Assembly: GCA_038134005.1 (NCBI GenBank)
Contig: JAYPUL010000019.1
Span: forward strand, 1-49,865
Direction of reading: 5' to 3'
Source of the DNA: Paracoccaceae bacterium
GTDB taxonomy: Bacteria; Pseudomonadota; Alphaproteobacteria; Rhodobacterales; Rhodobacteraceae
DNA length: 49,865 nt
Shown here: piece by piece, positions 4,021-46,657 of the stretch
Layout of the letters: each line of letters begins with the position of its first letter
Numbering within the stretch: the first letter of the stretch is position 1
Translations under genes and position numbers: made by a program
The notes under the pieces: generated by a model
Database searches by the model: none
What the model saw: only the letters and a program-made list of their open reading frames with translations
Told to the model about the DNA's origin: nothing

Positions 4021-6839
4021 GATGCTTTTCCCTTTGCTGTCATACGTTGGCGGTTTTGCGGCGCAGCTGGAACCGGTGATTTGATCGCATCAAATACAGG
4101 CACGCTTTCCCGTTGTGCACCAGCTGGCGCGATATTCACCCTAAGATCGAACCAAGCGGCTTGCCCTGTGATTGGGTCTGAATTTGACCGATCGGGGTTG
4201 TCATGCCGGTGTTCACTAATCAGGTGGTTCAACAAAAACCCTTTGGTGGCTTCAGGCGCATTTTCATCTAATGCCCATGCGCCCTTGCGTTTGCCTATCG
4301 CGTTCCATGTCCACACTGTATTTTCATTCAACGCGGCCATTTCGGCAACAGGCACGGTGATTTCGCCGTTTTGCGACGTGACACGTGCCCAATCGCCATC
4401 TCGGAACCCAAATTTCTTCATCAATTTGCTTGGCAAATACAATGGGTTCACACCATGGATCTGGCGAAGCCACGCGTTTTGTGTGCCCCAGCTGTGATAC
4501 ATCGCCATCGGTCGTTGCGTGAGGGCGTGAATAGGGAAATCATCTGGCGCCGATGTGCTATCGTACCAGATGGGCAGGGGGTTCATTGTTGAAATGATCT
4601 GATCACGCAGGTGATCTGGTGGTTGCAGGTCACCATGCCCTTGTGCGGCGCGGCGGAACTTTTGCAACGGTTCAAGGTAAAGTTGGAACAAATAAGGCTG
4701 CGCGGCATCGTATAACCCCGTTTCAACGGCCCAATCTTGATAGGCCATGTTCCAAGGTTTGAAATATTGCGCGGCCTCAGGAACGTGTTTGATCCAAAAT
4801 CCACCGTTGTCGATATAGCGTTGGATCTGGTCTTTGGGGGCGCTGCCTCGGCCGGTATCGTTTTCGCCCCGCCAACCCGCCAGAGGGCCAATGCCGGGCT
4901 TGCGTTCATGACGCGTGATGTAATCGGCATAATCAGCGTATTTTTGTGATCCATCTTCGTTCACAAAGTTTGGCAGATTTAAACGTGCCCCTAGGTCGAT
5001 GAGCACAGATTGAAATCCACGCACATCCCGATCGGGTTCAATTACAGGCCAACGAATGGCATCAGCCGCGGCGTCCGCTTCGCAAATGGGGCGATCGAGC
5101 AAGCTGATACAATCATGACGTTCTAAATAGGTTGTATCGGGCAGGATCAAATCGGCATAGGCGACCATTTCAGACGAATACGCATCAGAATAAATGATGC
5201 GAGGAATGACATATTCGCCATTGTCGTCCTGATCTGTCAGCATTTTGATGGTTTCGGCCGTGTTCATTGAACTGTTCCACGCCATATTCGCCATATACAG
5301 GAACAGCGTGTCGATCTTATAGGGATCACCAGCGTGGGCATTGGCAATAACCATATGCATCATGCCATGCGCTGACATTGGGTTTTCCCATGTAAACGCT
5401 TTGTCGATACGCGCGGCTGATCCGTCTGGGCGAATACACAAATCTTCGGGTCCGTGGACGAATCCCAAATGTGGACCATCCAAAGGTTTGCCAGGTGTTA
5501 CGCCGCAATGTGGTTTGGGATGGATTGATGATGGCTTTGGATAGGGGGGTTTGAACCGAAACCCGCCGGGCGTTTCTACAGCGCCCAACAGAATTTGCAG
5601 TGTATGCAGCGCACGACAGGTTTGGAAACCATTCGCATGCGCAGAAATGCCGCGCATCGCATGAAAGCTAACTGGGCGGCCAACCATTTGGGCATAGGTG
5701 TGGCCACGGAAATCGGTCCATTCTTGGTCTAGGCGAATTTCTTCGTCAAACGCGATGCGTGCAATTTCGTTGGCCAATGTCGTTATCCGCTCAGCCGAGA
5801 TGCCACAACGTTCGGCAACTGCTTCGGGCGCATAGGCCGGGTCCATGAAGTGATGGATCATTGCGGTGAATGCGGTCTCGGCAGCATGATGTTTCCCGCG
5901 CAAGTCGGGAACGATGCCTTTGGTGTCAAACGCGGAGGGTTTGCCGGTGGCGCGGTCAATCACCAAAGGTTTTCCATCGCTATCGCGCATAAATAAACCG
6001 GTCTCTGGATCAATGAGGACAGGCGCATTGGTAAATCGCGCTAGATAGTCGAAATCTATCTTGCCCATCTTGATCAGGCTTTGGATCAGCGCAAGGATGA
6101 ACAATCCATCGGTGCCTGGCGTGATGCCAACCCATTCGTCGGCAACTGCGTTATAGCCAGTACGGATTGGGTTCACGCCAATGACACGACCGCCGCGGGA
6201 TTTGATTTTACCAATCCCCATTTTGATGGGATTGCTGTCATGGTCTTCTGCAACGCCGAACAGCATGAATAATTTTGTATGATCCCAATCTGGTTGGCCG
6301 AATTCCCAAAACGCGCCACCCATCGTGTAAATACCTGCGGTCGCCATGTTGACGCTACAAAATCCGCCGTGGGCTGCATAGTTTGGCGTGCCGAACATTT
6401 GTGCCCAAAGGCTTGTGAACGATTGAGATTGGTCACGACCAGTGAAAAAAGCCAATTTTTCAGGCACTGTTTCGCGCAGGGGTGCCATCCAGTCGGTGGC
6501 AGTTTGCAAGGCTTCGTCCCATGTAATTTCTACGAATTCCCCCGATCCCCGTGGACCCACCCGTTTCAACGGTGCGCGAAGGCGTGAGGGTGCGGTGACC
6601 TGCATGATCCCGGCCGATCCCTTTGCGCACAGAACGCCTTTGTTGACGGGGTGATCACGGTTGCCTTCGATATAAGCGACCTGGCCGTCTTTCATATGAA
6701 CGTTGATCCCGCAACGGCAGGCACACATGTAACATGTGGTCTGACGAATTTCGTCAGAGACCTTGGGCGACGTGTCGATTTTATGTTCGTCTTTCATCGT
6801 ATTCCCTAATTTTTGTGCCTTAGGTGCAACCTGAGGCAC
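4017..6839 (-). CDS. soeA: Molybdopterin (bis-MGD) oxidoreductase catalytic subunit, DMSO-reductase family; putative cytoplasm-facing sulfite dehydrogenase SoeA (true start may be the Met 14 codons in)
   Basis: 940 aa. N-terminal 4Fe-4S motif 'CYMCACRCG...C' without a twin-arginine signal peptide. Size and the A-B-C gene order with FeS and NrfD-like subunits match SoeABC. Adjacent to sulfite-generating xsc/tau genes. Confidence 0.6.
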   Translation of the reverse strand: MPQVAPKAQKLGNTMKDEHKIDTSPKVSDEIRQTTCYMCACRCGINVHMKDGQVAYIEGNRDHPVNKGVLCAKGSAGIMQVTAPSRLRAPLKRVGPRGSGEFVEITWDEALQTATDWMAPLRETVPEKLAFFTGRDQSQSFTSLWAQMFGTPNYAAHGGFCSVNMATAGIYTMGGAFWEFGQPDWDHTKLFMLFGVAEDHDSNPIKMGIGKIKSRGGRVIGVNPIRTGYNAVADEWVGITPGTDGLFILALIQSLIKMGKIDFDYLARFTNAPVLIDPETGLFMRDSDGKPLVIDRATGKPSAFDTKGIVPDLRGKHHAAETAFTAMIHHFMDPAYAPEAVAERCGISAERITTLANEIARIAFDEEIRLDQEWTDFRGHTYAQMVGRPVSFHAMRGISAHANGFQTCRALHTLQILLGAVETPGGFRFKPPYPKPSSIHPKPHCGVTPGKPLDGPHLGFVHGPEDLCIRPDGSAARIDKAFTWENPMSAHGMMHMVIANAHAGDPYKIDTLFLYMANMAWNSSMNTAETIKMLTDQDDNGEYVIPRIIYSDAYSSEMVAYADLILPDTTYLERHDCISLLDRPICEADAAADAIRWPVIEPDRDVRGFQSVLIDLGARLNLPNFVNEDGSQKYADYADYITRHERKPGIGPLAGWRGENDTGRGSAPKDQIQRYIDNGGFWIKHVPEAAQYFKPWNMAYQDWAVETGLYDAAQPYLFQLYLEPLQKFRRAAQGHGDLQPPDHLRDQIISTMNPLPIWYDSTSAPDDFPIHALTQRPMAMYHSWGTQNAWLRQIHGVNPLYLPSKLMKKFGFRDGDWARVTSQNGEITVPVAEMAALNENTVWTWNAIGKRKGAWALDENAPEATKGFLLNHLISEHRHDNPDRSNSDPITGQAAWFDLRVNIAPAGAQRESVPVFDAIKSPVPAAPQNRQRMTAKGKAS

Positions 6840-29333: not shown

Positions 29334-30434
29334 ATGATTGACCGTGAATTTCATATTTTAGGATTAGAAAGCAGCTGTGATGACACGGCCGCCGCTGTCG
29401 TACGTTTTGATGCGTCTGGCCGTGCAGAGGTTTTATCGTCTGTGGTCATGGGGCAAAATGCATTACATGCCGATTTTGGCGGCGTCGTCCCCGAAATTGC
29501 AGCGCGCGCACATTCAGAACGTATTGATATTTGCGTCGAAGATGCAGTCGCGCAATCTGGTTTAGACATATCGTCAGTGGACGCAATTGCCGTGACCTCG
29601 GGGCCGGGTTTAATTGGTGGTGTTTTATCCGCAGTGATGTGTGCCAAAGGGTTAGCAAAAGGATTGGGCAAACCGTTGATCGGCGTGAACCACTTGGCAG
29701 GGCATGCGTTGACCCCCCGTTTGACCGATGCGATTGCGTTTCCTTATTTAATGCTTTTGGTATCGGGGGGGCATTGCCAGTTTTTAGCAGTAAAAAGCGC
29801 AACCGAATTTACCCGTATTGGTGGGACGATCGATGATGCACCTGGCGAAGCATTCGATAAGGTGGCTCGGTTGTTGGGTCTGGAACAACCTGGTGGTCCA
29901 AGCGTCGAGAAATGGGCCGAGCGTGGTGATCCCAAACGATTTGCATTGCCACGGCCATTATTAGATCGACCTGGGTGTGATATGTCGTTCTCTGGATTGA
30001 AAACCGCCCTTTTACGCACACGCGATGGTTTGGTCGCTGAACAAGGTGGTCTATTTGATCAGGATATCGCGGATATTTGTGCATGTTTTCAAACAGCAAT
30101 CGGCGATGTCATGGCAGAAAAGCTGACACGTGCCATTTATGAATTTTACAAAATCGCGCCTTTGGGGCAAACGGTTGCCGTTGCAGGTGGTGTTGCCGCG
30201 AATGCATATTTGCGGACAAGATTAGAGAACGTTTGTCAGGCGCATCAAGTTGCGTTTATTGCGCCTCCGTTGGCATTATGTACTGATAACGCAGCGATGA
30301 TCGCATATGCAGGGGGCGAATTGTTTAAATCAGGACGATGTGATGATCAACGGTTGTCAGCGCGACCGCGTTGGCCGTTAGACACAGCACAGCCTGCGCT
30401 TTTAGGAAGCGGAAAAAAAGGGGCAAAGGCATGA
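29334..30434 (+). CDS. tsaD: tRNA N6-adenosine threonylcarbamoyltransferase (Kae1/TsaD family)
   Basis: Start taken at '[23 protein letters not shown]', the TsaD N-terminal motif; the track ORF begins earlier at TTG 29280. Metal-binding 'HLAGH' motif present. ATGA overlap with gpsA. Confidence 0.85.
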
Positions 30435-31390
30435 CGATTTCGGTAATTGGCGCGGGAGCGTTTGGCACCGCTCTTGCCATCGCTTTGGCACGCGAGGGGC
30501 GCAACGTCATCCTCTGGGCGCGGGATGCGCAACTTGCGTCACAGATGGAACAGGCGCGAAAAAACGAAAACAAGTTAGCACATTTATCGTTTCCTGACAC
30601 CATTCGTGTGACGGCCGATATGAATGAGGCCGCGACGAACGACATCGTATTGATGGCAATCCCAATGCAACAGCTTCGCTCGGTCATCGACGCTTACAAA
30701 CCGTTATTGGCGGACAAAGCCTTGGTCGCGTGTTGTAAAGGTTTTGAAGTGTCTACCGGTACGGGGCCATGCGGTATTCTGGAAACGGCTTCGAATCGTG
30801 TTGCAATTTTGACGGGACCCAGTTTCGCCCATGACATCGCATATGGATTGCCAACGGCTTTGACACTTGCTGCGCGTGAGACTGCGCTGGGCATCGAGTT
30901 GCAAAATGCATTAGGCACCAAAACATTGCGACTATACCGTACCACCGATGTTACGGGCGCCGAATTGGGGGGGGCGTTGAAAAACGTGATCGCGATTGCG
31001 TGCGGTGCAACAATTGGTGCGGGTCTGGGGGATAGCGCATGCGCTGCGCTAATGACGCGGGGATATGCCGAAATGTTACGAATGGCGCGTGCTCTTGGTG
31101 CGGAACCTCAAACATTAGCCGGATTGTCGGGTTTTGGTGATTTATCGCTGACCTGCATGTCAGCAGGATCACGCAATTATCGTTTTGGGCAATCATTGGG
31201 CAAAGGTGAGCAATTCGATAGAAAAATCACCGTTGAAGGCGCCGCGACCGCAGGGGCAGCATTGACCAAAGCCAAAGAATTGGGTTTGGATATGCCCATA
31301 ACCAAAGTTGTTGATGATTTGGTTAACGGTCGCATAGACATGCCAAATGCCATCGATAAGCTTTTAAACCGTCCACAAAAGGAAGAATAA
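30431..31390 (+). CDS. gpsA: NAD(P)H-dependent glycerol-3-phosphate dehydrogenase
   Basis: Start at '[20 protein letters not shown]' with the Rossmann GxGxxG motif. About 319 aa. Confidence 0.85.
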
Positions 31391-31659
31391 TGTTCATTTC
31401 ATTGATCGCCAAAGACAAGGTAGGCCACTTAGAAACACGCAAAGCGAACCGTGATGCGCATCTCGCCTATATCAAAGAAACTGGTGTTGTTGCCCAAGCC
31501 GGTCCATTTTTGGATGCCGACGGCGTGATGTGCGGTTCACTCGTTATTTTGGATGTTGCGGATATGGCTGCGGCCCAAACTTGGGCGGCGAATGACCCTT
31601 ATGCAAAAGCTGGGTTGTTTGAAAGCACTGAACTGATTCAGTGGAACAAGGTTATCTAA
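31390..31659 (+). CDS. YciI-like protein
   Basis: 89 aa, in the conserved position after gpsA. TAATG overlap with the gpsA stop. Confidence 0.6.
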   Translation: MFISLIAKDKVGHLETRKANRDAHLAYIKETGVVAQAGPFLDADGVMCGSLVILDVADMAAAQTWAANDPYAKAGLFESTELIQWNKVI

Positions 31660-31660
31660 A

Positions 31661-32074
31661 ATGGCGTATTGGCTATTCAAATCTGAACCTGACACCTGGG
31701 GATGGACCGATCAGGTCGCAAAAGGGGACTTGGGTGAAGAATGGAATGGCGTGCGCAATTACCAAGCGCGCAACAATATGCGCGCTATGCAAATTGGCGA
31801 TCGCGGTTTTTTTTATCATTCGAATAAAGAACGCGCGATCGTCGGAATCGTCGAAGTGATCGCATTGGCGCATCCAGATAGCACAACGGACGATCCTAGG
31901 TGGGACTGTGTTGATATTAAAGCGGTGCAATCCGTAAAAACGCCTGTCACGTTGGACCAAATCAAGGATCATCCCGATTTGGTAAATATGATTTTGGTCA
32001 AGAATTCACGGTTATCTGTCCAGCCCGTTGAAGCGGGCGAATGGGAAATAATTTGTCGCCTTGCCGGGCTTTAA
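31661..32074 (+). CDS. EVE (PUA-like) domain protein
   Basis: 137 aa 'MAYWLFKSEPDTWGW...' with a typical EVE-domain N-terminus. Confidence 0.7.
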   Translation: MAYWLFKSEPDTWGWTDQVAKGDLGEEWNGVRNYQARNNMRAMQIGDRGFFYHSNKERAIVGIVEVIALAHPDSTTDDPRWDCVDIKAVQSVKTPVTLDQIKDHPDLVNMILVKNSRLSVQPVEAGEWEIICRLAGL

Positions 32075-32134
32075 TCGGCCCCGATATCACACAGCGCGCA
32101 GTGTTCAGCGATTGAACATTTCAAGCTTCGGTCA

Positions 32135-32872
32135 TCACCAGTTCCATGAAATGCAATATTGATGACCAATGGCCGGCTGCGCCGCGGTTAATCTAAAGGT
32201 GTCTGTGCTGACCTGCTTGAAAAGCGTGCCCCCGAATTTATTTTTACCCTCACACGAACGGACTTGATGAAAGATGCTCTTTGGAATTTTTGGTCCACAA
32301 AATTGAACTTTTAGATCCAAAAAGCGCGTCGGAAAGCAAATATCAATCCAATAGCTGCTGTCTTTAAGGGCACAATCCTTCATCGAGCGGACTGTGGTCG
32401 TTTTACGTGAAAAACTTTCATACATCGGAATGGGCGGATCATAAACGATTTCATAAACGTCGACATTTCCCTCGCGATATTTTGGCGACGCATCTTGATT
32501 GTTGATTTTGTAAGACACAATGTCAAAATCACCCCAAGTACATGGGATTTGTAACGATCTTGTTTCGTCTACCATGTTTAAGAATGTTGCAAAAATATCG
32601 GTCGACATGGTTTGATGTACCGTGTCAATAATCGTTAATGCATTGAAATTTTTACAATAAAGCTGCGAAAAATTTGACTCGTCTTTGCAGGTCAACAGGT
32701 AATCCCGAATGACCTGCTGCGCATCACTAAAGGTGTCTTCACCCACTTTATCCAAAATATTTCTGACCAGATGTGCAAAATCATGGCCATTTTTTGAAAT
32801 ACAATCCTGCATATCTGCGTCGGATGAAAACGATGCGATATGTGGTAAAATATGCTTGCACTGTATAGGCAA
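32135..32872 (-). CDS. Hypothetical protein, paralog A of a tandem pair (start codon uncertain: TTG at 32872, or the internal ATG of '...DADMQD...')
   Basis: 245-aa ORF. Clear protein-level paralogy with 33017..33640: shared blocks 'TFLNM..ET.SLQ', 'DVYE..YDPPIP', 'YWI.IC.PTRFLD..V.F.G...P...F.Q' and '..IGH.Y.I.W.W'. AT-rich and cysteine-rich, with no TM or signal peptide. The position homologous to copy B's ATG reads ATA. Confidence 0.6.
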   Translation of the reverse strand: MPIQCKHILPHIASFSSDADMQDCISKNGHDFAHLVRNILDKVGEDTFSDAQQVIRDYLLTCKDESNFSQLYCKNFNALTIIDTVHQTMSTDIFATFLNMVDETRSLQIPCTWGDFDIVSYKINNQDASPKYREGNVDVYEIVYDPPIPMYESFSRKTTTVRSMKDCALKDSSYWIDICFPTRFLDLKVQFCGPKIPKSIFHQVRSCEGKNKFGGTLFKQVSTDTFRLTAAQPAIGHQYCISWNW

Positions 32873-32950
32873 AGAATCAAAACGTTTTATGTGGGACGAC
32901 CCCGTTAAATCTCCTTACATGATGGGGTATGTCATGTTTTGCACATATAA

Positions 32951-32964
32951 CCCCAAAAGGGGGG
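32951..32964. repeat. Palindromic motif CCCCAAAAGGGGGG, copy 1 (upstream of paralog A)
   Basis: Seen directly. About 80 nt upstream of paralog A's start. The same motif recurs at 33826-33840 at equivalent spacing from paralog B's N-terminal region. Confidence 0.6.
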
Positions 32965-33016
32965 TATCACGTCATTGTGCCAATGTGGGGCATTTAACCG
33001 ACGGATGTTTAAAACG

Positions 33017-33769
33017 TTACCATTTCCAAACGATTCCGTAATGGTGCCCGATTAAAGGAAGGTTCGCGGTAATTCGAAAAGAATGCTGAGACGATGAATC
33101 AAATGTTTCGATGCGATCAAAATAGACTGCATCTGAAGATTTGGCCTGGCCGAATACAATATTAGGAACGCGCCTGCCTGTGAATTTTACGCGCACATCT
33201 AAAAACCGGGTGGGATAACAAATGTTGATCCAATATTCGTGATCCTTGAACGGATCATTCACAACCGAACGCAACACGTCCGTGGTTCGAATGAACGTTG
33301 TGAAGGCGGGAATGGGTGGATCATATGTTGCTTCGTAAACGTCGGTTTTTCCGCGGCTAAAAACATGATTGCCGATTTCGCCATTGATCCGGACCGAGAC
33401 AGTTTCAAAATGGCAATTTGTCGTTGTTGATTGTAATGACGTGGTTTCCGTCATCATGTTTAGAAATGTTGACGTGACTTTGGATCTAAGGGTTAGGGCA
33501 TCGGTGTCATAAATGACATTTGCCACACATTTCTTACAATACAAGTAATCTAAAATGTTTGGGTCAGCGTGTTCCATCGCATAACTACGAATTGCCAATA
33601 GTCCGTCTTCGAATGAATTTTCGGGTATTTTATCCAACATGTTTTGGACAAATTCCGTGTTTTGACGTGTCTACAATTTTAACAGTTGCGTAATTTCATC
33701 TTGGGTCGAACAGGCGGCCAAATGCGGCAAAATTGCTTTTTCTTCGGTCGTTAAAGCGGTGTGTTTCAT
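33017..33769 (-). pseudogene. Paralog B of the tandem pair, with its reading frame interrupted by one in-frame TAG (33671-33673); may still give a 207-aa product from ATG 33640
   Basis: ATG 33769 (SD AAGGGA) opens a frame encoding 'MKHTALTTEEKAILPHLAACSTQDEITQLLKL' then TAG. Ten codons later in the same frame the 207-aa ORF 33640..33017 begins. The N-terminal peptide aligns with paralog A's N-terminus ('KHILPHIASFSSDADMQD...'), so B is a full-length ~250-codon homolog carrying an amber codon. Confidence 0.5.
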
Positions 33770-33825
33770 TGATCCATCCCTTTTCCTATTTGCAAAACTA
33801 AATCTCAAATCTGAATTGCTATATT

Positions 33826-33840
33826 CCCCAAAAGGGGGGG
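33826..33840. repeat. Palindromic motif CCCCAAAAGGGGGGG, copy 2 (upstream of paralog B)
   Basis: Seen directly. 56 nt upstream of paralog B's ATG 33769. Confidence 0.6.
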
Positions 33841-34123
33841 CTGCTGTTTCCAAACCCTCCAGGCGTTAAAGAAAACAACATTTGACTTTTTGATAAATTG
33901 GGCGCATACGCAGGTCTTGCTGCGCCGCGGCGTGAGCGTGCCCTATATATGTCAAATTGGACGAAGGGTGCAGCAGCAGTTTCTCTTCCCCCATCACGCA
34001 GGGTTGAACAGTCGTCCAGATTTCGGGAATGTGCCCGTTGTCTTAAGGATGGCTTCCCTGTTGAGCGCCCCTAGGACGTGGGTGCGACGTATTCTTTTGG
34101 TGATCCCAAAAGTAAGGATAAAT

Positions 34124-35419
34124 ATGTTTGATTTCGATATGCTTGGGCTTGAACCCCAACTCAGCGCTGCACTAACGCGTTTGAACTTTACCCAACCGAC
34201 ACCGATCCAGGCGCAAGCCATCCCGCTGGCCTTGAATGGACATGATATTTTGGGTCTGGCCCAAACGGGTACCGGTAAAACGATGGCTTTTGGTTTGCCC
34301 TTGATGAATAACCTTTTGGCATTGCCTGGAAAGCCTGCGCCAAAAACGCCTAAAGCTCTTATTTTGGCACCTACGCGCGAATTGGTAAATCAAATCGCAA
34401 CCAATCTGGCAGAATTGGCAAAAAATACAAAATTGCGCATTGCAACCGTCGTCGGCGGCCAATCGATCCTAAAACAAATGCAGGTGCTAAACCGCGGATG
34501 CGATATTTTGGTCGCCACGCCCGGTCGGTTGATTGATTTGATGGAACGTAAGGCAGTCATCTTGGATCAAGTGACCTATCTGGTTTTGGACGAAGCTGAC
34601 CAAATGTTGGACATGGGGTTTGGCCAAGCGTTACAACGGATCGAACCTGAATTGGGCACACCACGTCAAACGATGTTGTTTTCTGCGACAATGTCGAAGC
34701 CAATGGAAAAAATTTCAGCGGCCTATTTGACAAACCCGCGCAAGGTTCAAATGGCGGCGGAAGGTACTGCTGCTGAACGTGTTGAACAGTCCGTGCATGT
34801 TGTTGCAGAGTCGGTTAAAGCCCAAGTGCTTCGCGAAATTTTGAACCAAGATCGAAATGCTTCAACATTGATCTTTGTGAAGACTAAATTTGCCACCGAA
34901 AAATTGATGAAACAGCTCGTTGCTGAAGGTTATAACGCTGGTTCAATCCATGGTAACAAAAGCCAAAGTCAACGGGATCGTGCGATTGGGGCGTTCCGTG
35001 ATGGCAAAATTGCAATCTTGTGTGCCACCGATGTGGCCGCGCGCGGAATTGATATTCCTGATGTCGCCCGTGTGATCAATATGAATCTTCCGATGCAGCC
35101 AGACGCGTATATCCATCGCATTGGTCGTACTGGGCGTGCGGGGCGTTCTGGGGTTGCCATTACATTATGTGCAACGACAGAAGTCGGCCTTTTACGCGAT
35201 GTCGAGAAACTTATGAAAGCAGAGATTCCTGTTGCGAGTGGCGCGGAATTGCTTCGCAATCTCGAACCGCCGGTTGCAAATAAACCAAAAGGTGGCCGTC
35301 GCCGTTTTGGTGGAGGTGGTCCAAAAGGGGATGGAGCAAAGCGTCAAGGTCGCGGGCAAGGGTCGCGTAAATTTGGTGGCGGCAATAAGCGCAATGAAGG
35401 TCGCAAAAAATCTGCCTGA
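34124..35419 (+). CDS. DEAD-box ATP-dependent RNA helicase (RhlE-like) with a basic Gly/Arg-rich C-terminal tail
   Basis: Start at 'MFDFDMLGL...' (SD AAGGAT). Q-motif and 'AQTGTGKT', 'DEAD', 'SAT' and 'HRIGRTGRAG' motifs. C-terminal 'GGRRRFGGGGPKGDGAKRQGRGQGSRKFGGGNKR'. A ~270-nt 5' leader is typical of cold-shock helicases. Confidence 0.9.
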   Translation: MFDFDMLGLEPQLSAALTRLNFTQPTPIQAQAIPLALNGHDILGLAQTGTGKTMAFGLPLMNNLLALPGKPAPKTPKALILAPTRELVNQIATNLAELAKNTKLRIATVVGGQSILKQMQVLNRGCDILVATPGRLIDLMERKAVILDQVTYLVLDEADQMLDMGFGQALQRIEPELGTPRQTMLFSATMSKPMEKISAAYLTNPRKVQMAAEGTAAERVEQSVHVVAESVKAQVLREILNQDRNASTLIFVKTKFATEKLMKQLVAEGYNAGSIHGNKSQSQRDRAIGAFRDGKIAILCATDVAARGIDIPDVARVINMNLPMQPDAYIHRIGRTGRAGRSGVAITLCATTEVGLLRDVEKLMKAEIPVASGAELLRNLEPPVANKPKGGRRRFGGGGPKGDGAKRQGRGQGSRKFGGGNKRNEGRKKSA

Positions 35420-38267: not shown

Positions 38268-38743
38268 GCAAAGTACATGTATCCACCACTGTAAACGGTG
38301 AAGCGGTCGAATTTTTGGCTGATACACGTGACAGTCTGTTGGACAGCCTGCGTGATAGTCTGGGATTAACAGGCACAAAAGAAGGATGTGGTACCGGGGA
38401 CTGTGGTGCCTGTTCTGTGCGCGTCGATGGCACGTTGGTGTGTTCCTGTTTGATGTTGGGCGTGGAAGCGCAAGGCAAGGAAATCGAAACAATCGAAGGC
38501 ATGGCAAGCGGCGATACATTGCACCCCTTGCAACAAAAGTTCATTGAACATGCCGCATTGCAATGTGGTTTCTGCACACCAGGCATTTTGGTTGCATCAA
38601 AAGCTTTGTTGGAAAAAAATCCTGATCCAACCGAAGAAGAAGTGCGTTATTGGTTGGCGGGCAATCTGTGCCGCTGCACTGGTTACGATAAAATTATTCG
38701 CGCGGTCATGGATGCCGCCGAAGAAATGCGGGGGGCTGCATAA
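38264..38743 (+). CDS. [2Fe-2S]-binding small subunit (CoxS/CutS-like)
   Basis: 159 aa. Plant-type ferredoxin motif 'CGTGDCGACSV' and the second 2Fe-2S motif 'CGFCTPG...CRCTGY'. Confidence 0.85.
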   Translation: MSKVHVSTTVNGEAVEFLADTRDSLLDSLRDSLGLTGTKEGCGTGDCGACSVRVDGTLVCSCLMLGVEAQGKEIETIEGMASGDTLHPLQQKFIEHAALQCGFCTPGILVASKALLEKNPDPTEEEVRYWLAGNLCRCTGYDKIIRAVMDAAEEMRGAA

Positions 38744-40983
38744 TGGCTAAAGATACCAACACATCCGATTTCCGTTATATTGGTTCGCGCCCTGCGCGCC
38801 CTGATGGATTGGACAAAGTCACCGGTCGCGCCCGTTATGGTGCGGATATTGCGGCCGCGAACATGTTGCACGCGGCAGTTTTACGATCACCACATGCCCA
38901 CGCGCGGATTGTGAAAATTGACACATCCAAAGTCGAAGCATTGAAAGGTGTGAAAGCGATCGTGACGCGTGCCGATTTTCCAACTGGTTTGACAGGCGAA
39001 GATTGGGATTTGCAAGAAAACACGATGGCGGGTGAGCGTGCTTTGTATGATGGGCATGCGGTTGCCGCGATTGCTGCGACATCGCCTCATATTGCGCGTG
39101 ATGCTGTCAAATTGATCGAGGTCGAATATGAAATTCTACCACATGTAATCGATGTCGATGACGCAATGGCGGATGGTGCGCCCGTTATTCGTGAAGGTGC
39201 TGCGAACAAAACCGTTCCAGAAGGCATGCATCCAAATGTTGTGAAATACATCGAATTTGGTCACGGTGATGTGGAAGATGGCTTTGCCAAGGCTGATTTG
39301 GTGATGGAACGTCACTATAAAACCGAAGCCACGCACCAAGGTTACATTGAACCCCATGCATGTATGGCCCAATTGGGCGCCGATGGCAAAGGTGAGATGT
39401 GGGTTTGTACGCAAGGGCATTGGTACATCCGTCGCATGTGTGCAGCCGTATTAGGGCTGGATACAGCGCAACTGCGTGTGACCGCTTCTGAAATCGGTGG
39501 CGGTTTTGGCGGGAAAACCACGATCTTTATGGAGCCTTTAGCGCTTGCGCTTAGCCGTAAATCTGGCGGGCGCCCGGTAAAGTTGGTTATGTCACGTTCT
39601 GAAGTTTTGCGCGCAACAGGCCCAACGGCGTCTGCGTCGATGGATGTGAAAATCGGCATGACCAAAGATGGCATGTTAACTGCGGGCGTTGCGAATTTCC
39701 GCATGCAGGGCGGCGCTTTCCCGGGGTCGCCGGTGGATATGGCGCTTTATTGTGCGTTTGCACCTTATCAGGTGCCAGCATTGCAACACATTGGGTATGA
39801 CGTTTTGGCAAACCGTCCAAAATGTGCCGCTTACCGTGCGCCCGGGTCCCCCATGGGTGCCTTTGCGGTCGAAAGCTTGATTGACGAAATGGCGACTGAA
39901 CTTGGGTTGGACCCAATGCAGGTCCGCATGAAAAACGGATCAAAATCAGGTGACCAATCCAGCTATGGTCCCAAATTCGGCGTCATCGGATTAGAAGAAA
40001 CTTTGGCCGCAACCCAAGCACATCCAAACCTATCTTTCCCGCTTGGTCCTAACCAAGGGCGTGGCATTGCGGCCGGTTATTGGTTTAACCATGGTGGGGA
40101 AACCTCGGTCTCTGTTGCGTTGTCCGAAGATGGCACGGTTCAGGTGTCTGTTGGCACCCCCGACATCGGCGGAAGCCGTGCATCAATGGCATTGATGGCG
40201 GCCGAAACATTGGGGATCCCCTATGAAAATGTCCGCGTCAATATTGCGGAAACGGGATCTTTGGGTGTCAATGAACCCACCCACGGCAGCCGAGCGACAT
40301 TTGCATCAGGAAAAGCGATGCATGGTGCATTGACCCAAGCGATCAATGAAATGTGCCGCCGTGCAGCGGGTAAATGGAAAATCGATCCCGAGGCCGTCGA
40401 ATGGAAAGACGGCGCAGCCGTCCCCGCCGGGCCAAACGCGGGGCAGTTTCCACCGATGACAATCCAAGAGATTGCGCGCAAAATGAAAAACACCGGTGGT
40501 CCAATTTCTGGTCACCATGAATCGGTTCCAGACGGGGTTGGCGACAGCTTTGGCGCGCACGTTGTTGACGTCGAAGTTGATCCAGAAACCGGTCATACAA
40601 AAATCCTGCGTTACTTGGTCGTCCAAGACGCAGGCCGTGCGATCCACCCGTCCTATGTCGAAGGCCAATACCAAGGTGGCGCGGTTCAAGGCATCGGTTG
40701 GGCGTTGAACGAAGAATACGTTTATGACGATATGGGGCGTTTGCAAAACCCAATCTTCTTGGATTACCGCGTGCCTGTGGCGTCCGATTTGCCCATGATT
40801 GACACCGTGATTGTCGAGGTTCCAAACCCTGGCCATCCATTTGGTGTGCGTGGTGTCGGTGAAACGGGGATCACCCCGCCATTGCCTGCGATTGCGAACG
40901 CTGTTGCTGCCGCGACGGGCGTACGCATCCGCCATTTGCCAATTACACCAACAAAATTGTTGGCTGCAATTAAGGCAAAATAA
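38743..40983 (+). CDS. Molybdopterin-binding large subunit of a xanthine dehydrogenase-family enzyme (not a form-I CO dehydrogenase)
   Basis: 746 aa. 'GGGFGGK' Mo-cofactor motif ('EIGGGFGGKTT'). It has 'AYRAPG' where bona fide CoxL has the AYXCSFR active-site loop, so the substrate is unknown (aldehyde or N-heterocycle). Confidence 0.8.
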   Translation: MAKDTNTSDFRYIGSRPARPDGLDKVTGRARYGADIAAANMLHAAVLRSPHAHARIVKIDTSKVEALKGVKAIVTRADFPTGLTGEDWDLQENTMAGERALYDGHAVAAIAATSPHIARDAVKLIEVEYEILPHVIDVDDAMADGAPVIREGAANKTVPEGMHPNVVKYIEFGHGDVEDGFAKADLVMERHYKTEATHQGYIEPHACMAQLGADGKGEMWVCTQGHWYIRRMCAAVLGLDTAQLRVTASEIGGGFGGKTTIFMEPLALALSRKSGGRPVKLVMSRSEVLRATGPTASASMDVKIGMTKDGMLTAGVANFRMQGGAFPGSPVDMALYCAFAPYQVPALQHIGYDVLANRPKCAAYRAPGSPMGAFAVESLIDEMATELGLDPMQVRMKNGSKSGDQSSYGPKFGVIGLEETLAATQAHPNLSFPLGPNQGRGIAAGYWFNHGGETSVSVALSEDGTVQVSVGTPDIGGSRASMALMAAETLGIPYENVRVNIAETGSLGVNEPTHGSRATFASGKAMHGALTQAINEMCRRAAGKWKIDPEAVEWKDGAAVPAGPNAGQFPPMTIQEIARKMKNTGGPISGHHESVPDGVGDSFGAHVVDVEVDPETGHTKILRYLVVQDAGRAIHPSYVEGQYQGGAVQGIGWALNEEYVYDDMGRLQNPIFLDYRVPVASDLPMIDTVIVEVPNPGHPFGVRGVGETGITPPLPAIANAVAAATGVRIRHLPITPTKLLAAIKAK

Positions 40984-45103: not shown

Positions 45104-46657
45104 ATGACCGATGATTGGCAATCCACAGCTCCGCGTCGATCCGCCCGTGCCGGCGGACGTGATGCAAAACGTGCTATGCGCATGGCGCCGCTGGCCGAAG
45201 AATTGCGCCCAATACGCGCAGGCCTTCCAGGGGGGGCATACCGCCCACTGACGCAGGCGGGAATGGAACAAATTCATGCCGCCGCGTTGGATGCGTTAGA
45301 GCAAATTGGCCTTTCTCAGGCACCTAAATCGGGTGTGGATGCAATGGTTGCGGCGGGGGCATTACTTGGGGATGATGGTCGGCTTAGGTTTCCGCGTGCA
45401 TTGGTCGAGGATATGTTGGCCAAAGCGTCGCGTGATATTACTTTGTTCGGACGCGATCCAAAATATGACCTGCATTTGACCGGAACAAATGTTCATTTCG
45501 GAACCGCTGGCGCAGCTGTTCACATTGTGGATGTGTTGACAAACACATACCGCGATTCAACCGCCCAAGATTTGTATGATGCCGCGCGTTTGACGCACAA
45601 TTTGGATAACGTTCATTTTTTCCAACGCGCAATGGTATGTCGTGATGTGATTGACAACCTCGAAATGGATTTGAATACGATTATGGCCTGTTGTTCGGGC
45701 ACGTCCAAACACGTTGGCACGTCGTTTTCAGATCCAAGTCACGTTGCGCCATGTATGGATATGATCCATACCATTGCAGGTGGGGAAGAAGCATGGCGCG
45801 CGCGCCCATTTATTTCAAATTCGAATTGCTTCGTTGTGCCACCCATGAAATTTGCCGAAGAAAGCTGTATCGCGATGGAACATTGTATCCGTGCGGGCAT
45901 GCCGGTTTTATTGTTGTCGGCCGGACAGGCCGGCGCGACTGCGCCAGCACCGATCGCCTTAGCAATCGTCCAAGCGGTTGCTGAATGTTTGGCAGGTGTG
46001 GTTTATGTCAATTCGATCAAACCGGGTCACCCTGCAATATTCGGGACTTGGCCCTTTGTGTCCGATCTCCGCACAGGTGCAATGTCAGGGGGATCGGCAG
46101 AACAGGCGTTGTTGACCGCAGGTTGTGCGCAAATGCACCAATTCTATGGTTTGCCTGGTGGTGCCGCTGCTGGCATCAGCGATGCAAAACTTCCAGATAT
46201 GCAGGCGGGTTGGGAACAGGGTATCACGAATACTTTGGCTGGCCTATCTGGTTTGAACATGGTTTATGAATCCGTTGGAATGCATGCATCGCTGTTAGGA
46301 TTCTGTTTGGAATCCTTGGTATTGGGTGACGACATTTTGGGCCAAGTTTTGCGCACAGTGCGCGGCATTGATGTCACGCCTGACAGCGTTTCAATTGATG
46401 TCATGAAAGAGGTTTGCTTGGGTGGTCCTGGACATTATCTTGGTGCGGATCAAACACGCGCTTTGATGCAGACGGAATATGTCTATCCAACCGTCGGCAA
46501 TCGCATGAGTCCAAAAGAATGGGTCGAGGCAGACCGACCAATTTTGATCGACAAAGCGATCGAACGGAAAAACGAAATTCTGTCCCGCGCAAAAAGCACG
46601 ATCGATCCGTTGATCGATGCAAAACTGCGTAAAACTTATAACATCTTTTTTCAATAA
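45104..46657 (+). CDS. MttB-superfamily (trimethylamine methyltransferase-like) protein, non-pyrrolysine type; probably a quaternary-amine:corrinoid or THF methyltransferase
   Basis: 517-aa uninterrupted ORF with no in-frame TAG. MttB-family TIM-barrel features, including a Gly-rich region '...GGSAEQALLTAGCAQM...'. Confidence 0.7.
   Translation: MTDDWQSTAPRRSARAGGRDAKRAMRMAPLAEELRPIRAGLPGGAYRPLTQAGMEQIHAAALDALEQIGLSQAPKSGVDAMVAAGALLGDDGRLRFPRALVEDMLAKASRDITLFGRDPKYDLHLTGTNVHFGTAGAAVHIVDVLTNTYRDSTAQDLYDAARLTHNLDNVHFFQRAMVCRDVIDNLEMDLNTIMACCSGTSKHVGTSFSDPSHVAPCMDMIHTIAGGEEAWRARPFISNSNCFVVPPMKFAEESCIAMEHCIRAGMPVLLLSAGQAGATAPAPIALAIVQAVAECLAGVVYVNSIKPGHPAIFGTWPFVSDLRTGAMSGGSAEQALLTAGCAQMHQFYGLPGGAAAGISDAKLPDMQAGWEQGITNTLAGLSGLNMVYESVGMHASLLGFCLESLVLGDDILGQVLRTVRGIDVTPDSVSIDVMKEVCLGGPGHYLGADQTRALMQTEYVYPTVGNRMSPKEWVEADRPILIDKAIERKNEILSRAKSTIDPLIDAKLRKTYNIFFQ

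Follow-up and report, generated by a model that had tools for sequence, protein, structure and literature searches.

Two tandem paralogues of an unannotated LuxR-type regulator family carry separate N-terminal lesions in a marine Rhodobacterales lineage

The stretch of DNA analyzed here (hereafter the window) covers 49,865 nucleotides (nt) of a Paracoccaceae bacterium (GenBank assembly GCA_038134005.1, contig JAYPUL010000019.1, positions 1 to 49,865, the entire contig, which is present at NCBI and JGI). Between an EVE-domain gene and a DEAD-box helicase gene it holds an AT-rich island with two genes on the same strand, copy A and copy B. Our analysis suggests that they arose by an ancient duplication and belong to a small, unannotated family of one-component regulators of transcription. 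Its proteins are about 250 amino acids (aa) long, and in them a four-helix helix-turn-helix (HTH) domain of the GerE/LuxR type comes first and a beta-sandwich follows. In the window lineage both genes have been struck by single transitions, CAG to TAG in copy B and ATG to ATA in copy A. As an explanation of the locus as a whole, we consider it likely that these are duplicated LuxR-type regulators with a candidate operator, both in ordinary recent decay.

The open reading frame (ORF) of copy A, as an annotation would place it, lies at 32135-32872 on the minus strand (245 aa from a TTG) and that of copy B at 33017-33640, also minus (207 aa, a remnant without the HTH). The full ancestral frames are longer. 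That of copy A spans 32135..32890 (251 codons plus stop), and that of copy B 33017..33769 (250 codons plus stop), the latter matching the 250-aa protein of a sister-lineage contig (L001) except at codon 33. The extended frames share 39% identity over 246 aa with no gaps (BLASTP, E 2e-62), and the alignment passes uninterrupted across the copy B TAG and reaches upstream of the copy A TTG. This confirms the paralogy of the 245- and 207-aa ORFs, which had been proposed in a first-pass annotation of the window. The same annotation had described one duplicated gene with a different N-terminal lesion in each copy, and the evidence below supports this. The existing annotation of the window contig gives copy B as two products of 32 and 207 aa, and copy A as 225 aa.

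The island (approximately 32090..33870) is bordered on the left by the EVE (PUA-like) domain gene (31661..32074, plus strand) and on the right by the promoter and leader of the DEAD-box helicase gene (33882..35419 including the leader, coding sequence 34124-35419, plus strand). When a 1.78-kb frame was slid along the window, the island, at 42.2% GC, was the lowest of the 481 positions sampled (mean 50.0%, standard deviation 2.4), in keeping with the earlier description of an AT-rich insert between housekeeping genes.

The frame of copy B opens at the ATG at 33769 behind an AAGGGA, runs for 32 codons to a TAG (codon 33, 33671..33673, minus strand) and, after ten sense codons, reaches the Met of the 207-aa ORF, all in one frame, as the first-pass annotation had read it. 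The TAG is a CAG (Gln) in the sister-lineage contigs L001 and L090, the change being C-to-T at 33673. According to the helix positions in the AlphaFold2 (AF2) model, the TAG is located in the turn that precedes the recognition helix, and therefore the 32-aa product would be useless and the 207-aa remnant, opened by the internal ATG (Met44, 33638..33640, minus strand), would lack the HTH. We take the TAG as an ordinary loss of function.

In copy A, the start codon (32888..32890, minus strand) is ATA in the window and ATG in L001 and L090, due to a G-to-A change at 32888. The loss of this start had been recognized correctly in substance, the same codon being the ATG that opens the 251-aa protein in the sister haplotype, but it occupies 32890-32888 and not 32886-32888. 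The TTG at 32870..32872 (minus strand) lies six codons downstream of the ATA, not 12 as reported before, and is the only in-frame alternative start sparing the whole HTH. The ATA allele would be hypomorphic. No Shine-Dalgarno sequence was visible before the copy A TTG or before Met44 of copy B. In the window there is also an ATG directly followed by TAA (32915-32920, minus strand), in frame and 28 nt upstream of the copy A start. This start-stop pair overlaps the only good Shine-Dalgarno-like sequence there, AAGGAG.

Intact alleles of both genes were found in a sister lineage. A word-indexed search of 5.8e9 protein clusters with copy A gave a single close match, its own orthologue P0001 (251 aa, 98% identity, starting with MKRFDSL...). 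The contig carrying P0001 (L001, Logan SRR26337523) aligned with the window without gaps over 5,660 nt at 99.3% identity and had both genes intact, with copy B encoding 250 aa with CAG and copy A 251 aa with ATG. A second intact locus, likewise with CAG and ATG, was found on L090 (NCBI GCA_038127825.1), an assembly for which a literature search gave no result. Over the aligned regions the two contigs were 98.3-99.3% identical to the window DNA, and across a 2.6-kb region the divergence of the sister lineage from the window was about 0.8-1.3%. The 90%-identity protein cluster to which copy B belongs contained seven distinct 250-aa sequences.

The lesions themselves also recurred. The T at 33673 was present in four of four further independent assemblies (L091, L092, L093 and L094) and the A at 32888 in the first three, L094 stopping short of the copy A start codon. 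These assemblies came from different samples, three from further SRA runs (L091, L092 and L094) and one from a JGI metagenome (L093), and each was 99.9-100% identical to the window, with the window alleles at the other variable sites. We give next to no weight to the view that TAG and ATA are sequencing or assembly errors of the window contig. Each is indeed a single-base difference from a closely identical sister lineage, but the shared haplotype background speaks against errors, and the different run and sample accessions speak against one common read set. The first-pass annotation had held that a sense codon in related genomes would mark the TAG as a sequencing error; the sense codon exists, as CAG in the sister lineage, but the TAG of four other assemblies is no sequencing error. 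Because the lesions recur in independent assemblies and the sister lineage has the sense codon and the ATG, they are natural and derived. An inactivating lesion opposite intact orthologues, independently verified, is the mark of a pseudogene, and this combination was found here. Judged from these comparisons, the lesions are a fixed natural haplotype of one sub-lineage, and not sequencing errors or programmed features.

Compared with L001, the coding sequences of copies A and B in the window together had 9 synonymous, 3 missense and 2 knock-out changes. For these 14 changes, 3.4 synonymous, 10.0 missense and 0.6 knock-outs would be expected under neutrality, showing that both genes were under purifying selection until recently. 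Set against the missense changes, the knock-outs amounted to 2 of 5, compared with 5.9% expected (binomial estimate, p about 0.03). This is weak evidence that either the loss was favored, or the second loss came free once the first gene was gone. With respect to base composition, the window had A/T where L001 had G/C at 12 of the 14 informative island sites (32177-33673), versus 9 of 18 in the flanks (29951-35317; Fisher p = 0.06). The excess in the island could be AT-drift after the loss of constraint; its polarity needs an outgroup.

Amber suppression and regulated isoforms had also been suggested for copy B. In such programmed recoding, a suppressor tRNA would read through the TAG, or regulated re-initiation would take place, giving a long and a short product. 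The frame is open across the TAG and both its sides are homologous to copy A. Gln is a common product of near-cognate readthrough at UAG, so that a small amount of protein with the ancestral residue would be made. Nevertheless, we consider recoding very improbable. Besides the CAG and ATG of the sister lineage and the seven 250-aa sequences in the cluster of copy B, a stop at that position occurred in no other family member. The window was without tRNA genes, and Rfam gave no recoding element near the TAG. The unrelated loss of the start codon in the paralogue of the same lineage fits decay better.

The sole PYLIS-like match in the window (PYLIS_3, RF02510; 46177-46274, plus strand, 46.9 bits) lies 12 kb away, inside an uninterrupted 517-aa ORF of the MttB family (45104-46657; PF06253, E 1e-103). 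With no in-frame TAG, this ORF reads as a non-pyrrolysine homologue, and the match as coding similarity, not recoding. On the sequence evidence, the fate of copy B is most likely ordinary gene decay and not stop-codon recoding.

What the two genes encoded became apparent from their distant relatives. We refer to the relatives of copies A and B as the A/B family. An exhaustive HMMER search of 1.84e9 representative proteins with an A+B profile recovered about a dozen cluster representatives, all about 250 aa long and aligned end to end. Matches to P0004-P0012 had E values from 3e-36 to 6e-05, over profile positions of about 4-245, and the family profile covered copy A at positions 2-250 and copy B at positions 3-250. 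Two proteins returned by the search, P0009 and P0013, were repeat proteins and were rejected as spurious matches, and the doubtful P0014 was excluded. A scan of the GTDB genomes with patterns from A and B gave no match. The hosts are apparently marine Rhodobacterales. In most naming sources the proteins of the family are called “hypothetical protein”.

Conservative members of the family carry a LuxR/GerE HTH at the N-terminus, for example LTERERQIVPFLAAGSSRTEMAQHFKVSAETIKIHVRNILNKF in P0004. The Pfam GerE model (PF00196) was matched by 8 of 11 members (best E 2.9e-15), and the family profile matched the DNA-binding domains of LiaR, VraR, GerE and NarL in the PDB, at positions 1-57 only. Copies A and B are homologous end to end to the PF00196-matching proteins. 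The first-pass annotation had assigned the two genes to no known family. This was wrong, the GerE/LuxR HTH being found via distant members, while the window copies are too diverged for Pfam alone. In copy A, a diverged GerE-type HTH occupies about 32690-32890 (N-terminal) and the beta-sandwich about 32138-32674 (C-terminal). In copy B, the corresponding regions are about 33572-33769 and about 33020-33556, all on the minus strand. An autoinducer-binding (PF03472) or receiver (PF00072) domain was found in no member of the family.

The AF2 model of the copy A orthologue, built on an 11-sequence alignment, had a predicted local distance difference test score (pLDDT) of 86.6 and a predicted template modeling score (pTM) of 0.81. 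It showed four helices (residues 9-67), in agreement with a four-helix DNA-binding fold, followed by an all-beta domain. This beta-sandwich, of about 185 aa, is specific to the family. Its fold resembles the N-terminal domain of M1 aminopeptidases/LTA4H, Ost1 (ribophorin I), and the structures 4g2a and 3kd4, the last two being uncharacterized structural-genomics proteins, presumably of the DUF3857 type. The heavy chain of the inter-alpha-trypsin inhibitor is a further fold relative. The sequence identity to the fold relatives (M1 aminopeptidase N-terminal domain, Ost1 and others) was 3-11%. In contrast to the M1 aminopeptidases, the beta domain has no catalytic domain attached and is fused to a DNA-binding domain instead. 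Outside the HTH there was no Pfam or NCBIfam match. Searched with the C-terminal profile, the PDB gave no chain at E<=10, and in the 5.8e9 protein clusters the beta domain was joined to nothing but the HTH. Viral fold matches were restricted to VIT-like giant-virus proteins, with low TM-scores. We suggest that the beta-sandwich would serve as a sensing or partner-binding module.

The four-helix HTH is shared with the LuxR/FixJ/NarL regulators. There, however, it is C-terminal, whereas in the A/B family it is N-terminal, and in place of a receiver, autoinducer-binding or MalT-type domain the partner is an orphan beta-sandwich. We found no description in the literature of an N-terminal HTH combined with a beta-sandwich. 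VisN and VisR of Sinorhizobium are adjacent LuxR-type paralogues that act together. The A/B genes resemble them as adjacent paralogous LuxR-family genes retained as a set in alphaproteobacteria, but VisN and VisR have an N-terminal ligand-domain-like region and then a C-terminal HTH, the opposite order.

Several observations weigh against our reading of copies A and B as decayed DNA-binding regulators. Neither window copy matched any Pfam model even at E<=10 (copy B searched with the TAG read as Ser), and P0003, their nearest relative, on its own also failed to match PF00196. A profile of the A/B/P0003 sub-clade had the LiaR DNA-binding domain as its top PDB match at E 0.28, and hhalign gave a probability of 13%. 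As read from the alignment, this sub-clade has another residue in place of the basic one in the canonical T-V-K-x-H recognition motif, and for this reason DNA binding is not assured there. With respect to decay, the remnant ORFs downstream of both lesions remain open, and copy A may still start at the ATA, or at the TTG with the loss of only six non-conserved residues, which would make it a hypomorph rather than a null. Moreover, two frameshifts seen in relatives of the window genes (in L002 and L008, see below) were each seen in one metagenome assembly only and may have arisen during assembly.

Both window genes are preceded by the same palindrome. The 14-mer CCCCAAAAGGGGGG (gene strand CCCCCCTTTTGGGG; on the gene strand, as listed for copy A, ATACCCCCCTTTTGGGGTTAT) is the sole long exact repeat common to the two upstream regions. 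It lies at 32951..32964, 61 nt 5' of the copy A start codon, where it abuts a -10-like TTATAT, and again at 33826..33839, 57 nt 5' of the copy B ATG. In L089, L006, L007 and L008, too, a CCC-W4-GGG inverted repeat, often as TACCCCAAAAGGGTAG, precedes the start of the first family gene by 57-72 nt and is followed immediately by a TA-rich -10-like hexamer. Its general form is CCC(C)-W4-GGG(G), often TACCCC-AAAA-GGGTA. Related palindromes were found upstream of the arrays at a second genomic site described below: TACCCCCTTAGGGGTA in L002, and TTACCCCATGGGGGGTAC in L004 and L095.

Family loci totaling 89 kb contained 7 matches to the CCC-W4-5-GGG pattern, while control loci from Rhodobacterales, totaling 910 kb, contained 6. 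Six of the seven family-locus matches sit 57-72 nt 5' of a family start codon, namely in the window (twice), L089, L006, L007 and L008. A third CCC-W4-GGG match in the window, CCCAATTGGG at 39368-39377, lies inside a 746-aa ORF (38743-40983), whose counterpart in L090 is annotated as the molybdopterin-binding subunit of an aldehyde/xanthine dehydrogenase. This match is probably due to chance.

Dimers of the NarL type bind inverted TACYYMT heptamers in a 7-2-7 arrangement. The A/B-family palindrome TACCCC..GGGGTA looks alike. CCC-W4-GGG is probably the operator of the family, and binding of a dimer to the inverted repeat upstream of each gene would result in autoregulation. Because the repeat abuts the putative -10 box, autorepression would be slightly more probable than activation. 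Sigma-54 and sigma-32 promoters were also considered for the motif, by eye, and rejected due to their poor fit to the consensus. A promoter and terminator scan of the region performed no better than on shuffled sequence.

Genes of the A/B family are almost always arranged in tandem, as two or three copies. L002 has three copies, the third frameshifted, and two copies each were found in L004, L095, L006 (in convergent orientation), L007 and L008 (the first frameshifted). Two genomic sites recur. Site 1 lies between the EVE-domain gene and the DEAD-box helicase gene (window, L001 and L090; L006; L089 and L005), and site 2 downstream of a GGT/anti-sigma/STAS/GAF/RluA block (L002, L004 and L095). 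The first-pass annotation had taken the duplication in the window as recent and followed by decay. The decay is recent, but the duplication is old, because no more than 39% identity is left between the copies and distant lineages also have tandem arrays.

Site 1 is filled in three diverged lineages (window, L006 and L089) and empty in a fourth (L009, a metagenome-assembled genome), so that, as the first-pass annotation had suspected, the presence of the island varies between related genomes. The EVE stop and the helicase start are 2,053 bp apart in the window and 2,051 bp apart in L006, but only 294 bp in L009. Among the EVE-protein matches listed, none of the 80 loci of GTDB species had an A/B-family member within 6 kb. 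The four lineages (window, L089, L006 and L009) are roughly equidistant, with GpsA 72-77% and the helicase 83-88% identical, whereas the island genes are 27-32% identical between them. Because the same site is filled in diverged lineages and the island genes have diverged so much further than the flanking ones, the island appears to be a long-standing resident of the site, with a rate of evolution several times that of its neighbors. L009 either lost it or never acquired it.

L089 (JGI Ga0181601_10000230), found by a metagenome scan, carries a single P0003-type gene at the EVE/helicase site. This gene has a nonsense mutation of its own, TAC to TAA at codon 207 (6580-6582), relative to an intact allele in L005 (97% identical DNA, gap-free). 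Since the mutation is independent of the window lesions, knock-outs recur in the A/B family. The protein cluster of the L089 gene also includes P0045, an N-terminally shortened member of 213 aa.

A mobile conflict module, such as a toxin/immunity or effector/immunity pair or an anti-phage defense system, could account for the low GC content, the presence and absence between related genomes, the fast divergence (27-32% identity between lineages, against 72-88% for the flanking proteins), and the frequent inactivation. We find it scarcely plausible, as the two genes are paralogues and not two functions, and nothing beyond a DNA-binding HTH can be recognized in them as a module. Matches to PADLOC and NCBIfam models were confined to HTH-bearing members of the family and did not include the window-type protein. 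No direct or inverted repeats flanking the island as marks of a mobile element were found in a repeat scan. An integrase, tRNA genes and phage-protein matches were not found either. The earlier idea of an immunity/effector-like pair was thus not supported, and we retain the reading as paralogous HTH regulators.

Functional remodeling is a further alternative. Here, HTH-less beta-domain proteins would be expressed as decoys or antagonists, or in a role independent of DNA. Neither lesion is located beyond codon 33, and the ORFs downstream are open (207 aa in B; in A, 245 aa with the TTG as start or 225 aa with the next ATG). In addition, the lesion haplotype persists in five assemblies, and the excess of knock-outs hints at selection. 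TrlR, a truncated TraR-like protein of Agrobacterium, is an HTH-less antagonist, and natural loss-of-function alleles are known as lasR variants of Pseudomonas aeruginosa. The latter resemble the window haplotype in that point-mutation knock-outs of a LuxR-type regulator segregate naturally beside intact alleles. The likeness to TrlR and to CerN lies in truncated forms without the HTH. CerN is described as an HTH-less antagonist of CerM (PMC11655674). The A/B case differs from all three in that two paralogues were hit in one lineage, and nothing here points to quorum sensing, to social cheating or to antagonist activity.

Nevertheless, we consider remodeling unlikely. The missing Shine-Dalgarno sequences before Met44 of B and the TTG of A do not favor expression of the shortened products. 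Since the lesions affect both copies, the locus retains no partner with an HTH that could be antagonized, and there is no other A/B-family copy in the 49.9-kb window. Lesions elsewhere hit the beta domain itself: L089 has its TAA at codon 207, and copy 3 of L002 and copy 1 of L008 are frameshifted in mid-gene. Because these lesions destroy the beta domain, plain decay is the general pattern of the family.

A bolder reading would see in the A/B family a class of one-component regulators not recognized before, with reversed architecture (the LuxR HTH ahead of a beta-sandwich sensor like the M1-peptidase N-terminal domain), its tandem paralogues forming heteromers on a shared TACCCC-N4-GGGGTA operator, and in the double lesion a selected switch, which either creates HTH-less decoys or turns the circuit off. 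We hold this for doubtful and distinctly unlikely. If true, an abundant marine roseobacter would harbor a natural polymorphism in regulation that segregates stably, similar to the loss of lasR.

Two neighboring features deserve mention. At site 2, a conserved gene of 109-112 aa without Pfam match is divergent from the arrays (L002 2034-2363, L004 3786-4124 and L095 4296-4634), and the palindrome TTACCCCATGGGGGGTAC is found about 70 nt from its start codon. This gene may be a regulatory target of the A/B family. To the right of the island, the window region 33882-34123 (plus strand) contains the promoter, with a conserved promoter-like TTGACT, and the leader of about 240 nt upstream of the helicase coding sequence (from 34124). 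Between the window, L009, L006 and L089 it is far more conserved than the neighboring coding DNA, with a mean column identity of 80% and long invariant blocks. RNAalifold predicted a structure of -60 kcal/mol with 61 pairs, 8 of them with compensatory changes, and no Rfam family was matched. We consider the region a candidate structured 5' leader of the rhlE-like helicase in Rhodobacterales.

For the window lineage, the preferred reading of recent decay means that the lesions are ordinary lineage-specific inactivations, which bring no recoding biology. The modest value of the locus lies in an unannotated and very rare family with a new LuxR-type domain architecture, regular arrays, fast evolution and repeated natural knock-outs, and in a candidate operator that makes this family testable. 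Annotators could name its genes LuxR-family regulator with an N-terminal HTH. The arrays would also provide a small model for the turnover of regulator paralogue sets in streamlined marine Rhodobacterales.

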